DNA of 37,610 nucleotides from Candidatus Heimdallarchaeota archaeon (GCA_016839945.1 JAEOTE010000100.1:1-37610), one strand, 5' to 3'. Numbered from the stretch's first letter, positions 14,346-37,070 are shown. Notes: a model not told the origin generated them from the letters alone. Translations and numbers: made by a program.

Positions 14346-16052
14346 ATGATTAAGGGATATCTCAATTTCGTCTTACATGGACATTTACCTTGGGTATTGC
14401 AACAAGGAGTGTGGCCACACGGAGAAAATTGGCTATTTGAAGCAGCTGCTGAGACATACTCTCCAACTCTCTCTATGTTAGCTAATCTTTACGAACAGAA
14501 AGGATATACAGAAATGCTTACTGTTGGCATAACTCCAGTTTTAGGAGAACAATTAGCTCATCCTAGATTTAAAGAAAGTTTTGAGGGATATCTTCAGGAC
14601 AGAATAAATGCAAGCTATAAGGATAAAGATTACTTTAACTGGGTAGGAGAATCTGAAAATTCAAAACTAGCTGAAGACTGGGCTAATTATTATACTTCAG
14701 TCAAAGAACAATTCGTTGAAAGATTCCATAAAGACCTGATAGGTGGGTACAAATATCTTCAAGATGAAAATGCAATAGAAATTATCTCTAGTGGTGTAAC
14801 TCATGGTTACCTACCCTTATTAGGTAAAGAAGAAACTGTAAATGCTCAAATACGAGCAGGACAAGCAATATATCAGAAATTATTTGGGAGAGAAAATTCA
14901 CAAGGTATCTGGCTTCCAGAACTGGCTTATAGACCGAGTTATAAATGGAAGAATCCTATTACAGGTAAAGAAATCGATAGGAAAGGAATAGAGCATTTCA
15001 TTGAGAAAAACAACATAAAATATTTCATAGTTGATACACCTTTATTAAGAGGGGGAAAAGGAATAGGAGCGTATCTAAAAAGGTTTGATGCGTTACAGCT
15101 TCTCTGGAAACAGTTTGAAAAAGAGAAAAAGGAATTGAAAGGAACTGATGAATCAATCTATAGACCATATTATGCTAATGAGAATGTAAAATTCTTTACT
15201 AGAGACGATAAAACAGGGATTCTTGTATGGAGTGGAGATGTGGGTTTTCCAGGAGATGGTTGGTATTTGGAATTTCATAAGAAACACCACCAATCTGGGC
15301 ATAGATATTGGCGGGTAACTGGAAAGGATGTAGATCTAGGAGAAAAAGAAATTTATGAACCAGATAAAATTGTAGAAAGGTTAGATGAAAATTCAGCATA
15401 CTTTGTAAAGATAGCTAAGGATAACCTGTTAAATTATTATGATCATGAGAAAACTCCTGGAATTGTAGTAAGTCCTTATGATTTCGAACTATTTGGTCAT
15501 TGGTGGTTTGAAGCCATTGGTTTTCTAGAAAGAGTTATAACACAAGTAAGTGAAGATGAAGAAATAGCAACAACTACTGGAACTAAATATCTAGAAACAT
15601 TTCCACCTGAGAAGAAGAAGATTATTTCTCTACCTGAAGGAAGTTGGGGAGAAGGTAATTTTCATTGGATTTGGTTAAATCAAGATACTCAATGGTGCTG
15701 GAAATATATCTATGAATGCGAAGAAATCTATCTAAAAGCTGTTAAAGAATATAGAAAAAAACATCATAGTTATTTTGAAAATGCTACAAGAATAATTAAT
15801 CAAATGGGGAGAGAATTATTCCTCTTATCATCCTCTGATTGGGAATTCCTCATTTCTACATGGGGGGCTCGAGATTATGCTGAACACAGGGTGACTCTTC
15901 ATTACGAGAATTTTAAGAAACTTCATAGCTTCTTTAAACATGCTTGCTCTAATCCTTTAACTGATGAACAGAATCAATTTCTGGGTAATTTGGAAGAAGA
16001 AGATAGTTTAGCTTATGAAATGAATGTACAAGAATGGTTCAGTAAAAATTAA
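14346..16052 (+). CDS. GH57 1,4-alpha-glucan branching enzyme
   Basis: HGHLPW, WLFEAAAETY, THGYLP, nucleophile WLPE, acid/base YDFELFGHWW, SSDWEF (DUF1957-type C-terminus). Confidence 0.9.
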   Translation: MIKGYLNFVLHGHLPWVLQQGVWPHGENWLFEAAAETYSPTLSMLANLYEQKGYTEMLTVGITPVLGEQLAHPRFKESFEGYLQDRINASYKDKDYFNWVGESENSKLAEDWANYYTSVKEQFVERFHKDLIGGYKYLQDENAIEIISSGVTHGYLPLLGKEETVNAQIRAGQAIYQKLFGRENSQGIWLPELAYRPSYKWKNPITGKEIDRKGIEHFIEKNNIKYFIVDTPLLRGGKGIGAYLKRFDALQLLWKQFEKEKKELKGTDESIYRPYYANENVKFFTRDDKTGILVWSGDVGFPGDGWYLEFHKKHHQSGHRYWRVTGKDVDLGEKEIYEPDKIVERLDENSAYFVKIAKDNLLNYYDHEKTPGIVVSPYDFELFGHWWFEAIGFLERVITQVSEDEEIATTTGTKYLETFPPEKKKIISLPEGSWGEGNFHWIWLNQDTQWCWKYIYECEEIYLKAVKEYRKKHHSYFENATRIINQMGRELFLLSSSDWEFLISTWGARDYAEHRVTLHYENFKKLHSFFKHACSNPLTDEQNQFLGNLEEEDSLAYEMNVQEWFSKN

Positions 16053-19015: not shown

Positions 19016-20473
19016 TTATCTTTTTTTATCTTGAGCTAGCTCGTAAACCTTTTGCCATTGTTTAGCAGCATTTTTCCAAGTAAAATCCAGGTTCATAATT
19101 TTCTTCTTGAGTTTTAGCCACTTCTCAGGTTCTTCTTTGTATACTTTAACAGCTCTTTTAACTGCAGCAAAAAACTCCTTTACATTAGGATTCTCAAAAA
19201 CAAATCCAGTCCCTTCTTCAGTTTTAGGGTCATAATTTTGTACAGTATCAGATAGTCCTCCTGTATTTCTAACAAGAGGTACTGTTCCATAAATCATTGA
19301 ATAGAGTTGATTTAATCCACAAGGTTCGTATTTAGATGGCATCAAGAATATATCTGCAGCTGCTTCAATTTGATGAGCAAGAGTGTTATCAAACATAATA
19401 TTTATTGAACTATTCTCATGATATTTTTCTTCTTTTTTCTTGAATTTTTTCTCAAGTTCAGGTTCTCCTGTTCCTAATAGAATGAACTGAACTTTCAGTT
19501 TCATAATATCATCGAACTTTTCAAGAATAAGGTCTAATCCTTTTTGAGTTGCTAATCTTGATATCACACCCAATATAGGCAAATCAGAGACGTTCAAATT
19601 GAGTTTATCTTGAAGATAACTTTTAGATTCAGTTTTACCTTTCAGATTCTTTGAATCATAATTCTTAACTAACAAAGGATCACTCTTTGGATTCCAGACA
19701 TTAAGATCAACTCCATGTACAATTCCATAAAGGTCTTCCTTTCTCTGTTCAATAAAGCTCTCTAAACCATATCCGAATTCTTTAGTTTGAATTTCTTCTG
19801 CATATTTTGAACTTACAGTTGTAAGAATATCTGAATAAACAATTGCTCCTTTCATGAAATTTATTTTACCATAAAAACCAAGGAGATCCTCATCAAAATA
19901 GACATCTGCAAGTTCAGCATCTGCAATATCCTCAAAAGGGTAGATTCCTTGATAGCCGATATTGTGAATTGTAAAAACAGACTTTGATTTCTTGAACAGA
20001 TCAACATCGTTATATTCTGTTTTCAAGAAGAAAGGTAGCAATCCTGTATGCCAATCATTACAATGAATAATATCCGGAGAAAATTTTAACCACCTTAGCA
20101 TTGCAAAAACTGATTTTGTGAATGTTAGAAATCTGTATGCACTGTCTGAATAATCCTCTCCATCTTCATCCACGTAAATTCCTTCTCTGTATAGATAGGG
20201 ATTCTTGATGAAATAAACTGGAACTTTCGAGTGCGGAATAAAAGAAACATAAAGATCGAAAAGCTCTACTTTTTCTCCTATTTTTGCAATAATGTTCTCT
20301 TTAACTAATTGAAGTCTAAACTTCTTAGTATCAATGGATTTGTAAAGAGGTGTGATAATAACTATTTTATGACCTAACCCTTGCATAGCCTTAGGAAATG
20401 CTGCTGAAACATCTCCTAATCCCCCTGTTTTGGAAAAAGGTGCAATTTCAGCTGTTACGAATGCTATCCTCAT
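19016..20473 (-). CDS. glgA: Glycogen synthase (GT5)
   Basis: EIAPFSKTGGLGDV, HCNDWHT, FTIHNIGYQG, SRLATQKG, MPSKYEPCGLNQ, TGGLSDTV. ATG at 20473 (MRIAFV) preferred; overlaps the end of the upstream GH57 gene. Confidence 0.95.
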   Translation of the reverse strand: MRIAFVTAEIAPFSKTGGLGDVSAAFPKAMQGLGHKIVIITPLYKSIDTKKFRLQLVKENIIAKIGEKVELFDLYVSFIPHSKVPVYFIKNPYLYREGIYVDEDGEDYSDSAYRFLTFTKSVFAMLRWLKFSPDIIHCNDWHTGLLPFFLKTEYNDVDLFKKSKSVFTIHNIGYQGIYPFEDIADAELADVYFDEDLLGFYGKINFMKGAIVYSDILTTVSSKYAEEIQTKEFGYGLESFIEQRKEDLYGIVHGVDLNVWNPKSDPLLVKNYDSKNLKGKTESKSYLQDKLNLNVSDLPILGVISRLATQKGLDLILEKFDDIMKLKVQFILLGTGEPELEKKFKKKEEKYHENSSINIMFDNTLAHQIEAAADIFLMPSKYEPCGLNQLYSMIYGTVPLVRNTGGLSDTVQNYDPKTEEGTGFVFENPNVKEFFAAVKRAVKVYKEEPEKWLKLKKKIMNLDFTWKNAAKQWQKVYELAQDKKR

Positions 20474-21617
20474 TTTTTTCTCCTTTTTGTTCAACTATTT
20501 CTATTATTCTTTGAATAATGTCATTTGATAGGTTAAAAATTATTTGTTTGGACCTTTTAGGCAAGCCATCAATCATTTTAACGAGTGATTTTCTTTGTAA
20601 TTGTAAACCTGTTAATATTAATTCAGGACTCCACCAATCCCTTGAAGCCCACCAAAATTGACAAGAATACAAAGAAGATTGATAATCATCAAACCATTCC
20701 CCTCTATCTATAAATTCCCTCACTCTTTCAAGAAAATCAATATGACTTTGTTGAAGCTGATGTATTGCATTAAATGGATGGTTCCATAAAGGTAATGGTA
20801 TATTGTCTTCCATATCTTGATCAGATGTTGACCAAGAAGAAGTTAAGAAATTCTTTATTTTCTTATTTAATGGAAATTCTCCAATGCTTTTAGAAAGAGT
20901 ATTCATTTGAGTAGATTTTGCTAAATCAAAGAAAAAATTATAGTACCTCTTATGATGCTCTCCAAATGTTTCTAAATCCATAGCTAGTAGGATAGGACAT
21001 TTTTGATTGTCATACTGATCACGTAAATCCTTAATTGCAGCATCTACATTTCCATTATACTGATTAAAAGCGATATTATTACTCAATTCCTTATCTCTCT
21101 TAATTAAGAAGACGGATTTACCATCCTCTAGCTCATAATACCCTCCGATTTTGAGATTGTTTATATTCTCTGGTGCAACGATTATCTTATAACCTTCTTT
21201 TACTATCTGGGGAATTACTTCCCCTGATATAGCTAATTCTGGAGGGAAGAACACTGAGCTGTTAACACCTAAAATATTGTAGGTTAACTTCTTTTGTTTG
21301 TTTATCTGATATCTTTGATCTTTTTTTAGAATCAGTGGTAAAATAGGGTGGTAGAACGCTGATCCCATAAGTTCTATTTGTTTAGATAGAATACCTTCCT
21401 CAATTAGATGTAAAACATCTGGATAACTTGTAGCAAATTTCTCTAATAAACAACCAGAAATATTTAATGTTATTTTGATTTCTGGATTTTCTAATAGTTT
21501 TCTTAAGAAAGGAATATAGCATTTTGAAATTATTCGATTGTATATCTCTTCCTTTTGAGTAATAGGTTGATAAGCATGTAAAACGAAAACCAAAGGGATT
21601 TTTTCCTTATTTTCCAT
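20448..21617 (-). CDS. GH57 glycoside hydrolase (amylase/amylopullulanase-like)
   Basis: HAYQP, ELMGSAFYHPILPL, nucleophile FPPE, acid/base DLETFGEH, SCQFWW; AGGTGA SD upstream. Confidence 0.85.
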   Translation of the reverse strand: MENKEKIPLVFVLHAYQPITQKEEIYNRIISKCYIPFLRKLLENPEIKITLNISGCLLEKFATSYPDVLHLIEEGILSKQIELMGSAFYHPILPLILKKDQRYQINKQKKLTYNILGVNSSVFFPPELAISGEVIPQIVKEGYKIIVAPENINNLKIGGYYELEDGKSVFLIKRDKELSNNIAFNQYNGNVDAAIKDLRDQYDNQKCPILLAMDLETFGEHHKRYYNFFFDLAKSTQMNTLSKSIGEFPLNKKIKNFLTSSWSTSDQDMEDNIPLPLWNHPFNAIHQLQQSHIDFLERVREFIDRGEWFDDYQSSLYSCQFWWASRDWWSPELILTGLQLQRKSLVKMIDGLPKRSKQIIFNLSNDIIQRIIEIVEQKGEKNEDSIRNS

Positions 21618-24272: not shown

Positions 24273-24356
24273 AATATGATTGTAGTATGAAATTATATAA
24301 AAGCTTCTATTTTGTTCTTGGGTAAAATTGATAAATAAGTGATTAAATCTCCTTGC

Positions 24357-25649
24357 ATGAAAAAGAAATCAACATATTTTCTTATATTTCTGATTTTAGG
24401 GACTTCTTTCATAAGTTTTAGTAATTTCAATAAAACTGTAATGCCTGCTAAAACAGATGAAGAAGATACATTTCTAAAACCAGAGCTAATTGATAATGGA
24501 TTACTTGCTCCAGAATTCAACATTACTGATGCTGATTCTCTTATTACATACAATTTAACAGATTTCCAAGGAAAAATGGTTGCTATAGATTTTTTTGCTA
24601 CTTGGTGTGTATATTGTATGGATTCTTTACCCTATATACGTCAATTATACTTGATGTATCCTGAAGATATGCTACAAATAATTTCTCTAGATACTGATAC
24701 ATCAGAGTCTAATGCTCAAATTTCCTCTTTTCGAAAAAAATGGGGTATGGATTGGATAGTGGGTAGTGATACATATGGAGTTAATGATGAATATGATATT
24801 TCAGGAATACCTTCTTTCTTCTTAATAAATCAAACTGGACATATAGTATGGAGTGAAGAGGGTTTTGCAGATTCTATGTGGCCTGGTTTTAGAGCAACTT
24901 TTGCTAGTTATTTGCCTGATGATACAGTAGATCCTATAATAACAGACTTTAGTGTAGAAAATAAAACAGAATTTTCAATATTTAATACAGAAATAAATAT
25001 TTTTGCTAATATAACTGAAGATAGGAATGTAAAAACAACTCAATTAAAAATAGAAACAAGTGGTCAAACAGAATTTATAGATCTGCCTTTTAATACAGAA
25101 GGAGATTTCAATATTATAAATGAATCAATAAGTATTGACCCTCTAATAGTATATGGAGAATCGCATATTGATTTAACCGTACAAGCTATTGATTACTTCG
25201 ATAATGTTGGAGTTTCAAGCGTAGAAGCTCTATCAGTAGCTAATTATGTAGATACAGCAGTACCTGAAATAGGAGAAGTAGCAATCATACTTGATGATGA
25301 TGGTTCAAGCAAGTATAATCTAACTGTTGAGGTTGAGGTAACAGAGGATTTACTATTGGTTGAAGCTGCTCTTTTAATACTAAAAGGAACTACACAACTG
25401 AAGTATATATACTTAGAACAGTTTAATTCAACTCATATGATTGCTAGTTGTGAATTGCCAAGATCAATAGCACCTCCAGAAGATATCACTGCAAAGGTCT
25501 TTCTTAGAGATGCTGCAAATAATACAGCTGAAGAAGCATATGACGTTCTTGATATTCCTGAAAATACTGAAAAAACGAGCTTAAATATCCTATATGCACT
25601 TTCTGCATTATTTATCATAATTATGTATTCCAAAAGGAGAAAGAAGTAG
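24357..25649 (+). CDS. Surface-anchored TlpA-like thioredoxin with acidic beta-rich stalk domains
   Basis: Signal peptide; APEFNI, DFFATWCVYC, cis-Pro GIPSFFLIN; two similar beta-rich modules (DTVDPII...AIDYFDNVG; DTAVPEI...LRDAANNTA); TM + KRRKK. Confidence 0.85.
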   Translation: MKKKSTYFLIFLILGTSFISFSNFNKTVMPAKTDEEDTFLKPELIDNGLLAPEFNITDADSLITYNLTDFQGKMVAIDFFATWCVYCMDSLPYIRQLYLMYPEDMLQIISLDTDTSESNAQISSFRKKWGMDWIVGSDTYGVNDEYDISGIPSFFLINQTGHIVWSEEGFADSMWPGFRATFASYLPDDTVDPIITDFSVENKTEFSIFNTEINIFANITEDRNVKTTQLKIETSGQTEFIDLPFNTEGDFNIINESISIDPLIVYGESHIDLTVQAIDYFDNVGVSSVEALSVANYVDTAVPEIGEVAIILDDDGSSKYNLTVEVEVTEDLLLVEAALLILKGTTQLKYIYLEQFNSTHMIASCELPRSIAPPEDITAKVFLRDAANNTAEEAYDVLDIPENTEKTSLNILYALSALFIIIMYSKRRKK

Positions 25650-25658
25650 CTCAGATCC

Positions 25659-25679
25659 TTTTTTTACCTTCTTTTTTTT
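25659..25679 (+). terminator. Oligo-T terminator candidate
   Basis: T7 and T8 tracts starting 10 nt after the stop at 25649, followed by TATA-like TTTTAAAT (25694-25701) 28 nt upstream of the next start. Confidence 0.5.
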
Positions 25680-25721
25680 ACTTAAGTAAAGCCTTTTAAA
25701 TCAAAGTTTTTTTCTTGATGC

Positions 25722-27011
25722 GTGAAGAAAGGACAAATAGCTTTTATCCTAATTTCTATTGTAATAATCGGTGGAGGAATAGGAGTCTATTTCTTAATTC
25801 AATCTTCATCGAAAAAATCTTCTACTGCTCCAAATTATGAATTAGAGAGTATTTCAGGATATAATTTCACCATTTCTTCTCTTGAAAACACGACTGTCAT
25901 ACTTGATTTTATGAGTGTAACTTGCATCCCTTGTAAACAGATGTACCCAATATTAAATGACCTTCAAAATGATGATGATCTTATGGGAAAAATTGAGATA
26001 ATATCCATTGAAACAGACTATACTACAACTATTCCTCAGCTAGAATCATATGCTTTAGATCAGAACATTACTTGGATACTCTGTAAGGCTCCCACAAACA
26101 TGACAGAAGATTATGGTGTTGTAACTCTTCCAACCTTTGTGATAATTAATCCTGAAGGTCTTGTAACATATATTGAAGAAGGAATAATTTCCTTTGACAA
26201 ATTAAAAGATGAGAGTCAAAAAGCAATAGAAGGAATAAGTGAAGGAATACAAATTACAAGTTATCAAGGATTCATAATTGGATTTGCAATTGTAGTTGCA
26301 ATGTCTTCTTTCTTCTCACCCTGTTCTTTCCCTCTTCTTCCAGGATATGTAGCTCACATAATAGGTGTAGATGTAGATGCAAAACAAAAAGAAGAGGAAG
26401 AAGAAGAAAAAGAAACTGATAAAACTTTGAAACAAGCTTTCCTTTATCCACTGCTTGGATTAAGCGGAGGTATCGGAATTTTGATCAGTTATTTAATTTT
26501 AGGTGTTATAGTTAGTTCTGTAGGAAAAGCAATTTTACCTTACTTAGTTTATGCTCTTCCCATAATTGGAGGATTATTCATCATACTTGGAATAGTAATG
26601 TTCACTAATTTCAATATTTCATTTTCAAAACTACTAGGATGGTTAAGAAAAGAACAAATGAAAATCAGTAAAACAGAAAAGAAAGCAACAATCTTTAGAA
26701 AAATATTCAGCACTTTCCTTTATGGTTTAGGCTATGGAATAGCATCTCTCGGATGTAATGGACCAATTTTCCTAGCATTTAGTCTGCAAGTGTCTGGACA
26801 AGAAACAATTGCAAAAATGATTTTTGCTTATCTAGCGTTTTCATTAACAATAATTCTCTTAATGGTAGGAGTAACAATAATACTCATCTTTTCAAGGGAT
26901 GTTATAGTCCAGAAATTAAAAGCTTCTACTGAAGTTATTAAGAAGATAAGTGGAGTAATCATGTTATTAGTAGGAATATATTTAATTCTAGAATTTGCAT
27001 TAGGGGCGTAA
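25722..27011 (+). CDS. TlpA-like thioredoxin fused to CcdA/DsbD transmembrane electron transporter
   Basis: N-terminal anchor; DFMSVTCIPC and TLPTFVIIN; six-TM domain with both conserved cysteines (SFFSPCSFPLLPGY; SLGCNGP) and KKISGVIMLLVGIYL. Confidence 0.9.
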   Translation: MKKGQIAFILISIVIIGGGIGVYFLIQSSSKKSSTAPNYELESISGYNFTISSLENTTVILDFMSVTCIPCKQMYPILNDLQNDDDLMGKIEIISIETDYTTTIPQLESYALDQNITWILCKAPTNMTEDYGVVTLPTFVIINPEGLVTYIEEGIISFDKLKDESQKAIEGISEGIQITSYQGFIIGFAIVVAMSSFFSPCSFPLLPGYVAHIIGVDVDAKQKEEEEEEKETDKTLKQAFLYPLLGLSGGIGILISYLILGVIVSSVGKAILPYLVYALPIIGGLFIILGIVMFTNFNISFSKLLGWLRKEQMKISKTEKKATIFRKIFSTFLYGLGYGIASLGCNGPIFLAFSLQVSGQETIAKMIFAYLAFSLTIILLMVGVTIILIFSRDVIVQKLKASTEVIKKISGVIMLLVGIYLILEFALGA

Positions 27012-27012
27012 A

Positions 27013-27561
27013 ATGATTAGAAAAAATAGAAACGAAATAATTTTCACAACTTTAATGTTATTTTTAGTTTTAACTTTGAATTCAAGAACAATACAAGCAG
27101 AAATAGATTATGGGATTAGCTCTGTCTCTATAGATCCCCAACCTTTGGTTGCTGGAGAAAACATGACAATTGTTGCGAATTTTTATGATACAACTAATGT
27201 AAGTTTAGTTAAATTACTAGTGTGTCAACTAGCTCCCGAATTTAAATGTGAACTAACACCCATTATTATGGAAGAAGAATCATCTTTGAGTTATGAAGGG
27301 AAGTTCTTAGTGTATTATGAGAATGGAGTTTCGGTAGGATTCCATCTTCAGATAGTATATGAAAATGGTTCATCAATATTAATTCCAGATAGAGAAAATT
27401 TCTTAGGTTTTAATACATCAGAACCTGAGACAGATGAGTTCTTTTTCTATGCTGGAATAGTAGGAGATTCAACTGAAAAAACTAAGGGAATTGTAGTAAT
27501 TACATCTGTCTTATCACTGATGGTAATAACGATATGGATTAAAAGAAGAAAGAACCAATAA
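27013..27561 (+). CDS. Secreted, C-terminally anchored beta-rich hypothetical protein with a C-x7-C pair
   Basis: Signal peptide; SIDPQPLVAGENMTIVA (Ig-like start); CQLAPEFKC; TM + KRRK; starts 1 nt after the ccdA stop. Confidence 0.75.
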   Translation: MIRKNRNEIIFTTLMLFLVLTLNSRTIQAEIDYGISSVSIDPQPLVAGENMTIVANFYDTTNVSLVKLLVCQLAPEFKCELTPIIMEEESSLSYEGKFLVYYENGVSVGFHLQIVYENGSSILIPDRENFLGFNTSEPETDEFFFYAGIVGDSTEKTKGIVVITSVLSLMVITIWIKRRKNQ

Positions 27562-27565
27562 TAGT

Positions 27566-27892
27566 TTGATGAATAATGAAATGGTGAATGAAGCTGGGAG
27601 AGGAGAAATCTGTTATTTTTGTAAAACTGATTTGAAGAATGTAGAGAGAAAACAGAAAACAGAACTCAGATGTTGCAAACTAGTTGCTCATAAGAAAGAA
27701 TTATTCCAATGGTTTTTAAAACATCAATATTGTCCTAATTGTCTTGCGGATGATAAGAAAGTAAGACAACAAATACTAGATTGGGGATTGAAGAAAGATA
27801 CTAAAAAGAAGAAATCAATTAAATCTATTGAACACAAGAAATGGAAAAATCAAAGATATGAGAAAAGACTGAGAGATACTAAGAAAGACTGA
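27566..27892 (+). CDS. Small soluble RING-variant protein with very basic tail
   Basis: CYFC-x16-CC-x4-H-x2-E-x3-W-x6-CPNC; Lys/Arg-rich C-terminus. Confidence 0.72.
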   Translation: MMNNEMVNEAGRGEICYFCKTDLKNVERKQKTELRCCKLVAHKKELFQWFLKHQYCPNCLADDKKVRQQILDWGLKKDTKKKKSIKSIEHKKWKNQRYEKRLRDTKKD

Positions 27893-27942
27893 ATTTTTGT
27901 AATTAGAAAATATTAAAATATGCTCCAAAGGTTTTCTGACTT

Positions 27943-28743
27943 GTGACACAGAAGAAATACTTACTAGCTCTCTCATTGATTATTATTCCACTACTTGCTA
28001 TTCCTATTAATGGGAATTATTCAGAGATTTCTGTAGGTTCGGAAAAACAATCAAAGACTTCTATAATTAAACAAACAACTTCTGATTTTACTATCCAAGA
28101 TGTAAATTCAGGTACATCCTATTCTCTTAGTGATTTTTGGGGTAAAGTTGTAGTTCTAGATATGTTTGCAACATGGTGTGGTCCATGCCAAATATCTCTT
28201 CCTTACTTAAGAGAGTTATATTCAGAATATTCAGAAGAAAAAGTTCAGATTATTTCGATTGCTGTTGATCCTTCTGAGAGTCTAGCTACTATCTCTCAAT
28301 TTCGTGATGATGAAAACATGGATTGGATTGTAGGTAAGGATTTAGATGGTTCCATTGCTACTGATTACGGTGTAAGTTCTATTCCAGTTTTCTATGTAAT
28401 AGATCAAAATGGAGAAATAGAATGGAATGATAGTGGTTTTACAGCTGATGGAACATGGCCAGTAATGGAAAGTACAATAAAAAAATTAGTGCGTGATGCT
28501 CAAGAGACACCAATAGTAGCAAGAGTATTTTTAATCATTCTTGAAGTAGGTGCTGGTTTAGGAGCTGCAGCTGGTATCATATTTGTTATATATAAAATAC
28601 GCAAACGATTAGGTGTTAAAAACTGTTTAAACTGCAATGCTGTGGCTAATTCAAAGTGTTCGAAATGTAGTACTTTGATATGTTCAAATTGTTCAGTAAA
28701 TGGTTGCCCAAATTGTGGTAGCACAAAATTTGTAAGATTATGA
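27943..28743 (+). CDS. TlpA-like thioredoxin - TM - 8-Cys zinc finger protein
   Basis: Signal peptide; DMFATWCGPC, SIPVFYVIDQNG; TM then KIRKR; CLNC-x7-CSKC-x4-CSNC-x4-CPNC. Confidence 0.85.
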   Translation: MTQKKYLLALSLIIIPLLAIPINGNYSEISVGSEKQSKTSIIKQTTSDFTIQDVNSGTSYSLSDFWGKVVVLDMFATWCGPCQISLPYLRELYSEYSEEKVQIISIAVDPSESLATISQFRDDENMDWIVGKDLDGSIATDYGVSSIPVFYVIDQNGEIEWNDSGFTADGTWPVMESTIKKLVRDAQETPIVARVFLIILEVGAGLGAAAGIIFVIYKIRKRLGVKNCLNCNAVANSKCSKCSTLICSNCSVNGCPNCGSTKFVRL

Positions 28744-31065: not shown

Positions 31066-33057
31066 TTGAAAAAAGAATCTATAAGATTAAGTGGTAATTC
31101 CTTCCTTAGGATTGTTATCTTGTTATTAGTTATTACACTTATCCCGTTTTCATATGCAGAAAATAATAATAAACTCTTTGATATAGAAATTCAGAAGATT
31201 TCTTATGATCCAATAATTATTTCATCAGATGCTGATTTTGGACCTTCAGGATATAATCTTCCGGGTTCTGGAACCTTTGGAGATCCTTACAGAATTGAGA
31301 AGTTAAACATCAATACACAGGCAGAATATGCAGTAGAAATAAGAGAAGTAACTTCCTATTTCGTGGTTGAAAGTAATAATCTGAAAGGATCTTTAGGAGG
31401 TCTTTATATCTCAAGTATTCTTCCTGGTCACACAAATATTTCTAATAATTCGTTCATTAAAATCGAAGATGGTACAGGAATTATTCTTACCAGTTCTGAT
31501 CAAGTTGAGATTAGAAATAACAATTTTCTTGATACAAATACAGCAATTGATTGTTCTCTTTCTACTGATGTTTCTATTATTGATAACGATATCAAATTTG
31601 GAAATAATGGAATAATCTTGAAAGATTCTCCAGGAGCTTTGATAAGGAATAATGAAATCTTATCTATGACAGGAAATTCCATTAGATTACAAGATTCCCA
31701 CTCTTCTCAGATTCGTTTGAATCAGATTAATGAAACTGGTACTGCTATGATTCTTGAATCAAATCATGTAGATGTTTGCAGTAATGTCATTTATGCAAAT
31801 ACTCAGGGAATACTAATTGAACAATCTATAGGTAGTAAATTCTGCGAAAATTTCATCTATCACAATTTAGGGGGAGCGATTTATCTCTCAACCTCAATTC
31901 AAAATATTAAAGAAGATAATGTGTTTTACCATAATTATTTCATTGCAAATAGTGAAGGAGAAAATCCTCAAGCAAAAAGTTATGGAACAAATAACACTTG
32001 GTATAACACAACACTGAATGAAGGAAACTATTGGAATGATGCAAATAAAACTGGACCATATTATCTTGAAGGAGCTATAGATTATTATCCTCTTACAACA
32101 ACTGATCGAGACAATGATGGACTAGATGATATAAACGAGAGATACGTATATTTTACAGATTTAGATTTCAATGATACAGATTTAGATGAACTTCTTGATG
32201 GAGAAGAGGTCTATACCTATTTCACAAGTCCTACTGATTCAGATTCAGACAATGATCGATTGAAAGATGGTGAAGAAGTTTTAATTTACGGAACAAACGC
32301 CTTAGATCCTGATACTGACAATGATTTATTGGATGATTATGAAGAACTTATGATTTACTTCACAGATGCTTTTGATCCAGATACTGATGATGACTCAATT
32401 CCTGACGGATGGGAAGTACTGAAAGGTCTTGATCCTTTAGTTGATGATTCTACATTAGATTACGACAATGATGAATTAAGCAATGTTGAGGAATATTACC
32501 TTGGTACACATCCATTCTTAAATGATACAGATTTTGATGATTTATTAGATGGAATAGAGGTGAATACTTACGGTACAGACCCTCTAGACAAAGATTCAGA
32601 CAATGACAACTTATTTGATGGTGAGGAGATTTTGGTGTATTTCACTAATGCTCTTAATCCGGATTCTGACAATGACACTCTCACAGATGGGATTGAGGTC
32701 AATGTTTATTTTACAAACCCTTTGAGTAATGATACAGATCTTGATAATTTGCCTGATCCATGGGAGATAGAATATGAACTTGATCCTTTGTTTGATGATT
32801 CATCTCTTGATCCTGATAATGACGATCTTACAAATTTAGGAGAATATTTAGCGGGAACACACCCATTTCTAAATGACACAGACGGGGACAAATTCTTGGA
32901 TGGAAAAGAAGTAAAAGCTGGAACTGATCCTCTGGATCCAAATGATTATCCCTTGTCTTCAAAACAGATAACTATGATTATAATTAGTTCTGTATCTGTA
33001 GCTATTATAGTTTCCGCATTAATAACAGGAATAGTAACTAAAATTCGTAAACGATGA
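31066..33057 (+). CDS. Surface protein: right-handed beta-helix + Ca-binding TSP3-like repeats + C-terminal TM
   Basis: Signal peptide; GSGTFGDPYRI cap; beta-helix repeats; GNYW...DYYPL; 12 DxDxDxxxDxxE-type repeats; TM + KIRKR. Confidence 0.85.
   Translation: MKKESIRLSGNSFLRIVILLLVITLIPFSYAENNNKLFDIEIQKISYDPIIISSDADFGPSGYNLPGSGTFGDPYRIEKLNINTQAEYAVEIREVTSYFVVESNNLKGSLGGLYISSILPGHTNISNNSFIKIEDGTGIILTSSDQVEIRNNNFLDTNTAIDCSLSTDVSIIDNDIKFGNNGIILKDSPGALIRNNEILSMTGNSIRLQDSHSSQIRLNQINETGTAMILESNHVDVCSNVIYANTQGILIEQSIGSKFCENFIYHNLGGAIYLSTSIQNIKEDNVFYHNYFIANSEGENPQAKSYGTNNTWYNTTLNEGNYWNDANKTGPYYLEGAIDYYPLTTTDRDNDGLDDINERYVYFTDLDFNDTDLDELLDGEEVYTYFTSPTDSDSDNDRLKDGEEVLIYGTNALDPDTDNDLLDDYEELMIYFTDAFDPDTDDDSIPDGWEVLKGLDPLVDDSTLDYDNDELSNVEEYYLGTHPFLNDTDFDDLLDGIEVNTYGTDPLDKDSDNDNLFDGEEILVYFTNALNPDSDNDTLTDGIEVNVYFTNPLSNDTDLDNLPDPWEIEYELDPLFDDSSLDPDNDDLTNLGEYLAGTHPFLNDTDGDKFLDGKEVKAGTDPLDPNDYPLSSKQITMIIISSVSVAIIVSALITGIVTKIRKR
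32101..32946 (+). repeat. Twelve intragenic TSP3-like acidic repeats of about 22-26 aa
   Basis: Units such as DTDLDELLDGEE, DSDNDRLKDGEE, DSDNDTLTDGIE; a three-unit block containing GTHPFLNDTD occurs twice. Confidence 0.85.
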
Positions 33058-33389: not shown

Positions 33390-34346
33390 TTAAATAATAT
33401 TAACTTGTAGACCAGCTTCTCTAGCCAATGTTTCAAAGGTTCTAAGACCATTTTCTTGAGATTCTGAGTGAATTTTTAGTGAATATTGACGACCTAATTC
33501 TTCATATTTACCTTTTCCCCATTCATGATATTTGAGAAACCTAATTTTTTTGATTCCTAGTTCTGTACAGAAATTGATTGTCTTTTTGATGTTTTCTAAA
33601 TCATCATTGATTCTTGGAATAATTGGGACAGAAATAGTTATTTTATTAACGTCAATTTGACTTAATTTTTTTAGATTCATGTGAATTTTCTCATTATTTA
33701 CCCCTGTTAACTCTTTATGTAATTTTGCATCCATAATCTTCAAGTCAAAAAAGAAGAAATCAATTTTTTGTATAAAATCTGCAACCTTTCGCCAATCAAA
33801 AAATCCACAGGTTTCTATTCCAACAGAAAATCCAATTGCCATAGTCTTCTTTAAAAACTCCCTAATAAAATCTGTATGAGCTAGAGGTTCACCACCTGAG
33901 AGTGTTATCCCACCTCCTGAGTTTCTGAATAATAAAGAATTCTTTTTTACTCTCTCAAATAAGTCTAAAACTGAAATACTGTATCCAACTGTTCTTAAAG
34001 CATTTTCAGGACACACTTGAGTACATATCTTTGATTCACAGATTGAACATTTCTTTCTGTTAATAATTGGGCATTCCAAATTAGAAAAATCAATACTAGA
34101 ATAAGTGCAAGCTTTTTCACATTTTCTACATCTCTTACATTTGATTTCAGAGTAAAAAATTTCTGGTTCAAATAGTTGACTTTCTGGATTTGAACACCAG
34201 ATACATTGAAGGTAGCATCCTTTAAAAAAAACAACTGTCCTTATTCCTGTCCCATCATCCACACAATAATCTTGTATATTAAAAATCGTTGTTTCCTCAT
34301 TCTTGAAGGATAATGGATTTGTTAAATCTTGTGTCAATATCATCAA
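33390..34346 (-). CDS. Glycyl-radical enzyme activating enzyme (radical SAM) with ferredoxin-like insert
   Basis: DGTGIRTVVFFKGCYLQCIWCSNPES (CxxxCxxC); insert CKRCRKCEKAC...CSICESKICTQVCP; GGITLSGGEP; IETCG; start overlaps the GRE stop (ATGA). Confidence 0.95.
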   Translation of the reverse strand: MMILTQDLTNPLSFKNEETTIFNIQDYCVDDGTGIRTVVFFKGCYLQCIWCSNPESQLFEPEIFYSEIKCKRCRKCEKACTYSSIDFSNLECPIINRKKCSICESKICTQVCPENALRTVGYSISVLDLFERVKKNSLLFRNSGGGITLSGGEPLAHTDFIREFLKKTMAIGFSVGIETCGFFDWRKVADFIQKIDFFFFDLKIMDAKLHKELTGVNNEKIHMNLKKLSQIDVNKITISVPIIPRINDDLENIKKTINFCTELGIKKIRFLKYHEWGKGKYEELGRQYSLKIHSESQENGLRTFETLAREAGLQVNII

Positions 34347-36829
34347 AGCTCTAATTCAGTTCTTTCAATAATTTGGTCTTGAATGGACTTGCTTAATTCA
34401 ACGAAGAAAGCACTAAATCCAGCGACTCTAACAATTAAATCACGATATTTATCTGGATTATTCTGAGCATCTCTTAACATCTCAGTATGAACTACATTAA
34501 ATTGTAATTGAAAACCAAGGTAATCAAAATATGTCTTGATCAAGGAAATTAATTTTTTTGAACCTAAAATTCCTTTAAGAGTAACAGGATGGAATTTCAT
34601 ATTGTGAAGTCCTCCTCTTATTTTGGTGTGGTCAACTTTTGCTGCTGATAAGATTGCAGCAACTGGTCCATTGACATCAGTTCCAGGAAATGGTGAAGTT
34701 ACTCCATCGCATAAAGGTATTTCAGCAAGTCTCCCATCAGGTGTTGCTCCAGTTACTTTCCCAAATGGTGTGTGAGTGCTAATCGCTAACATTGATGGAT
34801 CATATGGTTTCCCTAAATAATTAATACCATTCTTTACAAATTCACAGTAGGTATCAAAGAGATCAACAAAAATCTCATCAACGTCATCATCATCATTACC
34901 CCATTTAGGAGCATCAAGAGCTTTTCTTCTCATATCATCGTTGTTTTCAAAATTATTTTTACAAGCTTCCATAACTTCTGCCATAGTAAATAGTTTTTGA
35001 TCTTCTACAAGCCTTTTTACTGCAGCAAGAGAATTTGCAACATTTACCATTCCTGAAGAAAGCGTTGTTGGCACTTCATTACAAATAGCTCCACCATCAT
35101 CAAGAGATAAACCTCTTTCTACACAATCCCGGATTAAAACTGAAGAATAAATTAGATTACAAGTCTGTCGATGAGCTGCCATAACAATATTCCAGTAAGA
35201 TTGCCAATTCTGTATTGCTGTTTCTAAGTGAATTTTGTAAACCTTAATTAATTCTTCATAACTTCTTGGAATTTTTGTTTCAGTGAACTGTAAGTCTGTA
35301 CGTGGATCTTTCCCCCCATACATAGCTAATTCAAGTAATTTGCCATGATTAATAAATCCTGCTTGAACAATTCCATAACTCATTCCTTCCATGGTTGGTT
35401 CTGTGCAACCTCCCATAGCAGCATATTTCCTAATAACAGGAACTGGTAATCCAGATGTTTGTAATTCATGTTGGATATAGATCTTGAGATTGAACCAAGC
35501 TGGGAAGCCACATCCAGTTTTAACACATTCAACTGCTTTTAGAAGAAATTCCTCACTAAGAGAATCATCATACCATATCGATAATGTCGGTTGTGTAGTT
35601 TGACAATTAATAGCTGATTGCAGAATTAACATTGATAATTCGTTATCTCCACGTCTTCCATTTTCATCAGTCCCACCAATAATCATATTTTGAAATAAAT
35701 TTCCTGATCCAAGTCCTTCCCATGAGAAAGAAGCAACATATTCAATTTCAGTCATTTTTATACGTAATGCTTCTAGTAACTCTAATACTTCATCTTCAGA
35801 AATTTGAGTATCTTCTTTATAAAATGGATACATATATCTATCGAATCTTCCAGGTGAATACCCAAGGTGAGCTCCTTCGATATGACCCGCTAAGTAAATA
35901 AACCAAAAAGCTTGCATAGCTTCTATAAAGTTTCTTGGTGGATTTTCTGGTACCCATTTACAATGACCAGCTATTGTTAATAACTCCTGTTTTCTCTTTG
36001 GATCCATTTCTGTCTGTGCTAATCTTTCTGCTTCATTAGCATAATTGTTCGCCCAAGTAATTGTCGCTTCTAAGACTCTTATTCCAGCTTTCCAAAAATA
36101 TACTTTTTCTGCTGATTTATAGTCAGTTATTTGTGTTTTCAAGATATTTTTTTTCATTTTCTCAATAATTTTTTGAAAACCTTCATTTAAAGCAGTTTCA
36201 AAATCAAGAACATATCTTCCTTCTGGAGCAGGATCATGTGGGGCTGTATATAATACTGCTTCCCATCCCTTCTCTATGTAGTCTGCTGCTGAAAAAGTAG
36301 TTTTCCATAAAGCATCTCCCACATCCTGCATACTTTTACCTTTAAAATATTCTGCACATTCTTTCAGATTATCTTTGTCCTTTTTTGATATTAGAAATTT
36401 ATGTGAAAAAATATCTAAATCTTCTGATTGAGCGAGTTCCCTTCCTTTAGCAATCCCACCTCCATCTCCTAAATCAGTAACACTATCTTGAGCTTCTTGT
36501 TGCTTTTCTTCAAATATTTTCAAAATGAAATCAGATGCATAATTGCAATAAGGAATTGCTCCACGAACAAATCTTGTTTTACTTCCAACAATAAGCTCAT
36601 TATCTCTTATTACTGGTGTTAAATTCTCTAAAGCATAAGCATGACATTCAGCTCTTCTTTCTAAAACATTCATTCCATCAGTTTTACGATGAGCTTCCAT
36701 GTAACCATAAATATACTCTGGATCAATCATCAAAGGTTCTGATAAATATTGATCACGTAAGTGTCGAATTCTTTCAGTTGAAGGTTGTTTAATAATTTCT
36801 CTTGGTTCAAAGGTAAGTGATTCAGTCAC
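34343..36829 (-). CDS. Glycyl radical enzyme, likely related to arylacetate (4-hydroxyphenylacetate-type) decarboxylases
   Basis: Gly loop LIVRVAGFS; single-Cys loop MGGCTEP; SPGRFD, APKWGND, ATPDGR; GTG start with GAGGT SD. Not PFL (no CC pair). Confidence 0.9.
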   Translation of the reverse strand: MTESLTFEPREIIKQPSTERIRHLRDQYLSEPLMIDPEYIYGYMEAHRKTDGMNVLERRAECHAYALENLTPVIRDNELIVGSKTRFVRGAIPYCNYASDFILKIFEEKQQEAQDSVTDLGDGGGIAKGRELAQSEDLDIFSHKFLISKKDKDNLKECAEYFKGKSMQDVGDALWKTTFSAADYIEKGWEAVLYTAPHDPAPEGRYVLDFETALNEGFQKIIEKMKKNILKTQITDYKSAEKVYFWKAGIRVLEATITWANNYANEAERLAQTEMDPKRKQELLTIAGHCKWVPENPPRNFIEAMQAFWFIYLAGHIEGAHLGYSPGRFDRYMYPFYKEDTQISEDEVLELLEALRIKMTEIEYVASFSWEGLGSGNLFQNMIIGGTDENGRRGDNELSMLILQSAINCQTTQPTLSIWYDDSLSEEFLLKAVECVKTGCGFPAWFNLKIYIQHELQTSGLPVPVIRKYAAMGGCTEPTMEGMSYGIVQAGFINHGKLLELAMYGGKDPRTDLQFTETKIPRSYEELIKVYKIHLETAIQNWQSYWNIVMAAHRQTCNLIYSSVLIRDCVERGLSLDDGGAICNEVPTTLSSGMVNVANSLAAVKRLVEDQKLFTMAEVMEACKNNFENNDDMRRKALDAPKWGNDDDDVDEIFVDLFDTYCEFVKNGINYLGKPYDPSMLAISTHTPFGKVTGATPDGRLAEIPLCDGVTSPFPGTDVNGPVAAILSAAKVDHTKIRGGLHNMKFHPVTLKGILGSKKLISLIKTYFDYLGFQLQFNVVHTEMLRDAQNNPDKYRDLIVRVAGFSAFFVELSKSIQDQIIERTELEL

Positions 36830-37070
36830 TTTCTTCTACCTCTTAAAAAGAAATTGAATAATCAATTATTTTAATATTCCTTAGGATTATTCTCTAATGT
36901 AAAAATGTTATCAAATTGAAGTGGATTCAATAAAAATACTTCCGACAAAACACAACTAATGAGATAAAAAAATAGAAAAATAAGAAAAGAAGAAGAGAGT
37001 ATTCATTTCAATCTAATAGATATAAGTTCGGAAACTAGTCCAAAACTTTATTTATTATAATAAGTAAGTC

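Follow-up and report, generated by a model that had tools for sequence, protein, structure and literature searches.

The window analysed here is an entire 37.6-kb contig (37,610 nucleotides; JAEOTE010000100.1, contig C73) of a Candidatus Heimdallarchaeota archaeon, whose 3.0-Mb metagenome-assembled genome (MAG) comprises 186 contigs and is 88% complete, with an estimated contamination of 2.35%. Its minus strand carries a two-gene cassette comprising an oxygen-sensitive glycyl radical enzyme (GRE) of 828 amino acids (positions 34343–36829) and, directly behind it, a GRE-activating radical S-adenosylmethionine (SAM) enzyme of 317 amino acids (33390–34343). The GRE was assigned by its matches to the PFL-like (PF02901, 535.6 bits) and Gly_radical (PF01228, 97.4 bits) Pfam models, by NCBIfam scores, by an AlphaFold2 model and by phylogenetic trees, and the activase by TIGR02494 (304.4 bits; cut-off 174) and by the sequence of the gene junction. 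Taken together, the data make it probable that the cassette is a self-contained unit, acquired horizontally, in which a GRE decarboxylase of the indoleacetate decarboxylase/4-hydroxyphenylacetate decarboxylase (IAD/HPAD) subclass is paired with a dedicated activase.

The GRE gene starts with GTG, about 10 nucleotides behind a GAGGT-like ribosome-binding site, and is preceded by a leader (36830–36912, minus strand) that blastn finds kept along with the cassette in other Asgard genomes. Its junction with the activase gene reads GAG CTT TGA TG, a TGATG stop/start overlap in which one base is common to both genes. The open reading frame (ORF) finder placed the activase at 33390–34346 on the minus strand, with a TTG start at 34346; the ATG at 34343 is most likely the true start, and a related Asgard locus (L004) shows the identical 1-nucleotide overlap with an activase likewise of 317 amino acids. 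Since the two genes overlap, nothing can be encoded between them, and the claim of an earlier, preliminary description of this DNA that no room is left for a small Fe–S subunit gene is borne out. In eight related loci, gene calling gave no small-subunit ORF between the GRE and activase genes or immediately next to either, and the HpdC model (NF033716) found no match elsewhere in the genome, a weak negative given 88% completeness and a model that was silent in every control genome too. The preliminary description had regarded the missing hpdC as a departure from HPAD; it is to be expected, because IAD (PMC6181972) and AAD (PMC13450708) also work without a small subunit.

Both proteins retain the residues of their families. 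The thiyl-radical loop of the GRE, G-G-C475-T-E477 ... Q489-A-G-F492 (35354–35410, minus strand), keeps the register C+2, C+14 and C+17, ungapped as in IAD, and the radical-bearing Gly804 lies in RVAGF (34418–34420, minus strand), an invariant alignment column. The activase contains the radical-SAM cluster motif C43-x3-C47-x2-C50 (34194–34217, minus strand) and eight more cysteines in a ferredoxin-like insert (34011–34139, minus strand), where they form two groups of four, C69/72/75/79 and C99/102/107/111. These eight cysteines are predicted to hold two auxiliary [4Fe-4S] clusters, and the IAD activase has a similar 8-cysteine feature (PMC6181972). A GRE with a GGCTE cysteine loop coupled to a ferredoxin-insert activase, as first proposed, is thus confirmed by Pfam, TIGR02494 and the TGATG overlap, and the motifs quoted at that time (the GGG insert, PEGR, RIKMTEIEYVAS, QPTLSIWYD and GGCTE) are all found in the GRE. 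In comparisons with five further Asgard genomes, of which one entered as two loci (L046 and L004), the ratio of nonsynonymous to synonymous substitution rates (dN/dS) was 0.09–0.12 for the GRE and 0.16–0.27 for the activase. The cassette is real, intact and under purifying selection.

Placement within the IAD/HPAD subclass

Among curated NCBIfam models, that for IAD (NF033718) matched the GRE best, over its full length and with 811.6 bits against a cut-off of 1100, and the HPAD large-subunit model (NF033715) gave 540.6 bits (cut-off 1150). As a yardstick, bona fide IADs score 1561–1725 bits and one bona fide HPAD 1725 bits with their own models. HPAD had initially served as the comparator; by these scores IAD is closer. 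The GRE is 38–44% identical to bona fide IADs and 36% identical to HPAD. Its AlphaFold2 model (pLDDT 92.9, pTM 0.93) lies near all solved GREs, with TM scores of about 0.9, and the top Foldseek match was HPAD (2y8n, TMq 0.93) in a PDB set that did not contain the IAD structure determined by cryo-electron microscopy (cryo-EM). HPAD is also the sole solved GRE chain that aligns from residue 18; the others, including the eliminases, begin at about residue 144, and AAD (PDB 7e7l) matches only from residue 217, with 296 bits.

Phylogenetic trees were built from relatives of the GRE, NCBI-named IADs, including the Faecalicatena contorta / Clostridium sp. D5 protein that appears in the list of the discovery paper, and HPADs from Clostridium sp. 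HMP27 and Crassaminicella. The GRE and its relatives formed a separate clade, with support of 100 in IQ-TREE (67 rows), where IAD was also supported at 100. This clade was sister to IAD plus HPAD in FastTree (248 rows; support 98) as well as in IQ-TREE (SH-aLRT 98). Outside this assemblage, both trees showed first a small set of further unassayed sequences and then, more distantly, the eliminases. The original placement in the decarboxylase clade rather than among the eliminases is thereby upheld, and the GRE falls inside no characterised GRE cluster. A tree in which the clade pairs with IAD alone, leaving HPAD outside, was not rejected by the approximately unbiased (AU) test (p = 0.26). It is safe to say that the GRE falls within the IAD/HPAD subclass, as a third branch distinct from IAD and from HPAD.

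Asgard GREs, those of Hermodarchaeota among them, have been annotated as alkyl- or benzylsuccinate synthases (Ass/Bss) in the literature (PMC8163825), and cassette copies occur in Hermodarchaeota-labelled MAGs. It is nevertheless very improbable that the present enzyme belongs to this type. With 239–268 bits, the BSS and MASS alpha chains ranked near the bottom of the PFL2-type matches among solved GREs; the BssD activase model gave 192 bits against a cut-off of 496; genes for beta, gamma or delta small subunits are absent; and both trees place the GRE inside the IAD/HPAD subclass. The published assignment was made on 29–33% identity (PMC8163825). Ass/Bss-type hydrocarbon activation should not be the default reading for Asgard GREs, and some of the published Hermodarchaeota assignments may need revisiting. 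IAD-like copies of the cassette (L052–L057) were observed in MAGs titled Hermodarchaeota, Hodarchaeota or Promethearchaeota.

The known GRE decarboxylases number only four, and every PFL-like GRE characterised so far comes from a bacterium (PMC13450708). With respect to these, the cassette is a variant within a known GRE decarboxylase subclass and embodies no new principle. Two of the known enzymes, AAD and the phenylacetate decarboxylase PAD (PhdB), resemble it in lacking a small subunit. They differ from it in that AAD is reported to be without the structural extensions of IAD and HPAD (PMC13232127), and PAD, by its description, has a Gln in place of the CxE Glu (PMC9248008), which the GRE keeps as Glu477.

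Substrate pocket and predicted reaction

Pocket residues were compared with those given for OuIAD in the cryo-EM paper, namely C223, R226, W392, F401, C500, E502, H514, F517, L616, L730, I731 and G853, and the IAD/HPAD extensions were defined as in the same paper (PMC13232127). The IAD reference sequence (P0368) is exact at 9 of these 12 positions and scores 1606 bits with NF033718; a Riflebacteria-type sequence (P0148, 1188 bits) was dropped as a reference, since it does not share the published numbering. CsHPAD numbering was verified on PDB 2y8n. In the GRE, the pocket and catalytic positions read P202, R205, W370, G374, F379, C475, E477, Q489, F492, L590, L681, A682 and G804, and the matching string in the IAD reference is C R W A F C E H F L L F G, so that 9 of 13 positions are identical. 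IAD Arg226, Trp392, Phe401, Phe517, Leu616 and Leu730 are kept as Arg205, Trp370, Phe379, Phe492, Leu590 and Leu681; throughout the clade there is no variation in the Arg that stacks, the Trp that gates, the aromatic/aliphatic cage or the catalytic triad. Two of the changes are invariant in the clade. IAD His514 is Gln489, and the residue aligned with IAD Ala396 and HPAD Leu400 is Gly374 (35708–35710, minus strand); of the sequences compared, all 118 from the clade have Gly at this position, all 30 IADs Ala and all 14 HPADs Leu. Also specific to the clade are a Pro (Pro202) replacing Cys/Met223 and an Ala at position 731, which is variable among IADs (I731 in OuIAD, Ser in 29/30). The altered pocket that the preliminary description had suggested is therefore not broadly changed; it is nearly that of IAD, with a fixed His-to-Gln and a fixed Ala-to-Gly replacement.

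With HPAD the correspondence is looser. HPAD Ser344, His536 and Glu637 are represented by Leu322, a deletion and Leu590, respectively. The phenol-binding His and Glu of HPAD had been read as QAGFI and TTLSSG in this protein, which holds for Glu637, as Leu590 lies in TTLSSG, and was only approximate for His536. The latter residue sits within an HPAD-only insert after the Cys loop that is missing from the GRE, and QAGF aligns with H-P-A-F of IAD. By analogy, the pocket would be IAD-like and greasy, with Arg205 stacking on the substrate ring, Trp370 gating the channel and Phe379, Phe492, Leu590 and Leu681 lining the cavity. A polar residue, Gln489, would sit at the place where His514 of IAD holds the indole N–H. 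Outside the pocket, the N-terminal region is present, and extension 1 (the cap) is retained with 51 residues, compared with 45 in IAD.

A reaction cycle can be proposed by analogy with IAD and HPAD. The activase's radical-SAM [4Fe-4S] cluster, together with S-adenosylmethionine, would abstract a hydrogen from Gly804, assisted by the two auxiliary clusters of the ferredoxin insert. The Gly804 radical would then generate a thiyl radical on Cys475, which would attack the bound arylacetate, with Glu477 acting as proton relay. After release of CO2, the resulting benzylic-type radical would regain a hydrogen from Cys475, yielding the methyl-arene. On this basis, we infer that the enzyme most likely decarboxylates an arylacetate derived from an aromatic amino acid. 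The most likely substrates would be 4-hydroxyphenylacetate, giving p-cresol, and indole-3-acetate, giving skatole; phenylacetate or a substrate new to science is possible.

Several observations weigh against a decarboxylase of this kind. None of the four GRE decarboxylases treated in a review of June 2026 belongs to the clade (PMC13450708). By raw sequence, diol and glycerol dehydratases outscore HPAD among solved structures (459 vs 361 bits). Where IAD has His514, a residue invariant in 30/30 IADs, Gln occupies the position in 118/118 clade members; the N-terminal extension reaches half its length in IAD (17 vs 38 residues), and extension 2 is absent (7 residues, compared with 22 in IAD/HPAD). 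Gene neighbourhood is not conserved across eight related loci and so gives no hint of substrate or pathway. Finally, the link to p-cresol comes from the annotations of protist fusion proteins and from the work of Nyvltova in 2017, which reportedly describes p-cresol formation in Mastigamoeba balamuthi, an organism whose enzyme is unconfirmed as a member of the clade.

The dehydratase scores, the variable neighbourhood and the lack of extension 2, a trait of non-decarboxylase relatives, would suit an enzyme of different chemistry, performing elimination, dehydration or another C–C cleavage on a non-arylacetate substrate, with the likeness to IAD being only ancestral. To our knowledge, no enzyme assay of any member of the clade exists. 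Such chemistry is nonetheless improbable, given that the hydrophobic aromatic cage, stacking Arg and gating Trp of IAD are invariantly retained, that the enzyme has the N-terminal region and the extension 1 that typify IAD/HPAD, and that the trees join the clade to decarboxylases with support of 98–100.

Within decarboxylation, the closest known system is IAD of the Olsenella uli, O. scatoligenes and Clostridium scatologenes type (NF033718), which shares with the GRE its subclass, a ferredoxin-insert activase, the catalytic Gly, Cys and CxE Glu, the stacking Arg, the gating Trp, the Phe/Phe/Leu/Leu cage, the N-terminal region and extension 1. The GRE could accordingly be viewed as a divergent IAD that makes skatole, with Gln489 accepting the indole N–H hydrogen bond instead of His514. 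IAD as the top curated match, the nine identical pocket and catalytic positions, the IAD-like lack of a small subunit (PMC6181972) and the AU test that tolerates the clade with IAD but without HPAD all favour this view. We consider it doubtful, however, because the score lies 288 bits under the NF033718 equivalog cut-off, the clade and IAD are separate groups, the His/Gln difference is fixed on both sides, Ala396 is replaced by Gly, and extension 2 is missing. Replacement of the histidine is also costly in IAD itself, where the H514A variant has a 66-fold lower kcat and a 70-fold higher Km (PMC9248008). As this single exchange cripples IAD, a fixed Gln plausibly means another substrate or another way of holding it.

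HPAD (HpdB/CsdB with HpdC; 2y8n/2yaj, NF033715) is the second point of reference, resembling the GRE in subclass, fold, N-terminal alignment and catalytic Gly, Cys and Glu. It differs in having HpdC, a [4Fe-4S] small subunit whose gene separates those of the large subunit and the activase, in Ser344, His536 and Glu637, and in the insert after the Cys loop. A tentative alternative is that the GRE forms p-cresol from 4-hydroxyphenylacetate without a small subunit, Gln489 reading the phenol OH as a third independent solution after those of HPAD and AAD. Protist fusion proteins of the same clade, from Paratrimastix and Hexamita, carry HPAD annotations and identical pocket residues, and AAD decarboxylates 4-hydroxyphenylacetate without the HPAD residues or a small subunit (PMC13450708). 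In addition, passages of PMC8136499 and PMC7762791 cite Nyvltova et al. (2017) for p-cresol formation in Mastigamoeba balamuthi by laterally acquired enzymes, though its sequence could not be placed in the clade, and a search seeded with the Pelomyxa fusion returned no match named as the M. balamuthi HPAD–activase fusion. What argues against p-cresol formation is that HPAD reportedly needs the phenol-binding Glu (PMC9248008), that all three HPAD residues are lost in the GRE, and that the pocket is nearer to that of IAD. The bolder view that the clade constitutes a fifth GRE decarboxylase type, acting on an aromatic or other acid outside the range of the four known enzymes and carried by a cassette traded among anaerobic bacteria, Asgard archaea and protists, appears rather unlikely. 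Since its pocket departs from that of IAD in a simple, fixed way (His to Gln, Ala to Gly), the clade is apt for learning how substrates are read in this subclass.

For arylacetate decarboxylation, the favoured function, the genome offers a source of substrate. It encodes IorA above the curated cut-off, second and third genes resembling indolepyruvate oxidoreductase (IOR), and four paralogues of the ADP-forming acyl-CoA synthetase (ACD); on contig C155 (79–2238), an IOR-like gene is followed directly by a homologue of the ACD alpha subunit. In the peptide fermentation of Thermococcales, the IOR and ACD pair turns arylpyruvates into arylacetates with a gain of ATP. Because this standard archaeal route from aromatic amino acids is encoded, a supply of arylacetate exists, and the decarboxylase would convert the acid end-products into neutral, volatile methyl-arenes. 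p-Cresol, skatole and toluene are toxic or signalling volatiles, and the cassette may thus shape interactions in anoxic sediments.

A second GRE of the genome (contig C51, 7435–9381; L001, 1084–3447, minus strand) is an equivalog of trans-4-hydroxy-L-proline dehydratase (HypD), with 1319 bits against a cut-off of 1100 and 1057 bits to PDB 6vxc; its activase is short, with 267 amino acids (L001, 3451–4254). No archaeal HypD has been characterised according to the 2026 review (PMC13450708). Together, HypD and an IAD-like decarboxylase would point to amino-acid fermentation rather than hydrocarbon activation. GREs of like size (open frames of 738–799 amino acids; 34–37% identity to the GRE of the window) were seen in 11 other genomes of the order.

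Host genome, distribution and horizontal transfer

A 16S search in the genome came back empty. The genome encodes ribosomal protein L31e, and GTDB places it in the phylum of MAGs titled Hermodarchaeota, Hodarchaeota or Promethearchaeota and in the class of Ca. Hodarchaeum mangrovi; L31e and these named relatives identify it as archaeal. The fragmentation of the MAG into 186 contigs, its estimated contamination and the bacterial nature of the nearest non-Asgard relatives could suggest a bacterial fragment binned by mistake, and hence a gene that is not archaeal. This is highly unlikely, as the sequences flanking the cassette find matches of 65–82% nucleotide identity in genomes of the same genus, ThrC and GlgA of the contig are 78% and 75% identical to a pair 14 kb apart on one same-genus contig, and the cassette recurs in six more Asgard MAGs, which are independent assemblies.

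Among 400 Asgard genomes, seven carry the cassette: the present one, four of the 22 in the Hodarchaeum genus (87–89% identity), and single genomes from two further classes (90% and 77%). Within its own order, it was found in 1 of 47 genomes, the GRE matches in the other 46 being of a different type and 34–37% identical. Nucleotide homology between the Asgard copies (83.5–87.6%) extends from the activase stop to at most 83 nucleotides upstream of the GRE start; in blastn it ends between 36843 and 36912, and the flanks beyond are unrelated. The GRE is 87–90% identical across GTDB families and classes, and ThrC and GlgA from the same contig are 56–59% and 39–41% identical, respectively, to those of the Hodarchaeum-genus carriers; neither has a match in genomes G202 or G108. 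Because no other genome of the order (46 in all) has the cassette and the homology ends at its edges, a horizontal spread of the two-gene unit is indicated, and the patchy distribution (7/400) argues against vertical descent. From these comparisons, the cassette was gained horizontally, out of a pool shared by a few Asgard lineages that is ultimately nested among anaerobic bacteria, and it documents recent gene exchange between distant Asgard lineages. The cassette edges showed neither an integrase nor flanking direct or inverted repeats beyond weak AT-rich matches.

The clade as a whole comprises hundreds of sequences from many bacterial phyla, several protist groups and Asgard archaea, and its hosts are these archaea, protists and environmental bacteria, in contrast to the gut Clostridia and Coriobacteriia that harbour IAD. 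Bacterial members, 55–77% identical to the GRE, come from Anoxybacter fermentans, Ignavibacteria, Kapaibacterium, Bacteroidales, WOR-3, Cloacimonadales, MAGs of Planctomycetota/Brocadiaceae and Tepidiaquacella. Members from anaerobic protists (Paratrimastix, Pelomyxa, Hexamita and further transcriptomes) are 58–64% identical and have the same pocket residues, including the Gln and Gly signature. With the exception of one 826-residue transcript, these proteins (P0066, P0068, P0070, P0072, P0073, P0081 and P0104) are GRE–activase fusions. Those of Paratrimastix pyriformis, Hexamita inflata and Pelomyxa schiedti form one chain of about 1100–1170 amino acids, whereas the archaeon has two overlapping genes. 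The Paratrimastix and Hexamita fusions are annotated as HPAD or HPAD–activase fusion, and that of Pelomyxa as formate acetyltransferase.

In IQ-TREE, the protists formed one group (support 97) and the Asgard archaea another (support 99), both nested among bacteria, with a single bacterial sequence as sister to the Asgard group (support 92). Forcing the Asgard and protist sequences together costs 3.3 log-likelihood units, and the AU test (p = 0.46) is compatible with a single origin common to the Asgard and eukaryotic copies. The designation as an archaeal GRE therefore stands in that the gene resides in an archaeal genome; it is not an archaeal invention, being part of a horizontally moving cassette nested among bacterial sequences.

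Individual neighbourhoods of the cassette were also inspected. In one Asgard copy, the third gene downstream encodes an MFS transporter, which does not recur. In the cultured bacterium Anoxybacter fermentans (CP016379, locus L005), a PALP enzyme lies ahead of the cassette, and after it come a BcrAD/BadFG-type activator and a 2-hydroxyacyl-CoA dehydratase subunit (HGD-D). This arrangement, which may reflect amino-acid fermentation, is absent from the other loci. Being cultured, this species could serve for tests of volatile products.

Other genes of the contig

Neither tRNA genes nor Rfam elements were found in the 37.6-kb window. The cassette is adjoined by a 160-residue ORF with two cysteines and no Pfam match. 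Convergent to it, at 31066–33057 on the plus strand, lies a gene for a 663-residue NosD-like beta-helix protein with a bacterial TSP3 repeat; the middle part of this protein has dozens of partial nucleotide matches in same-genus genomes, which suggests an expanded surface-protein family. Further away, at 24339–28743 on the plus strand, three ResA/thioredoxin-fold paralogues of 436, 429 and 266 amino acids stand in a row, the first and second with long C-terminal parts that match no family, and two small match-less ORFs separate the second from the third. Positions 14346–16052 and 19016–20494 encode a branching enzyme of the GH57 type and a glycogen synthase, GlgA, of bacterial type, in a region syntenic with a same-genus genome (G010, contig C75). 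Their presence on the contig means that genes of glycogen metabolism exist in this Asgard archaeon.

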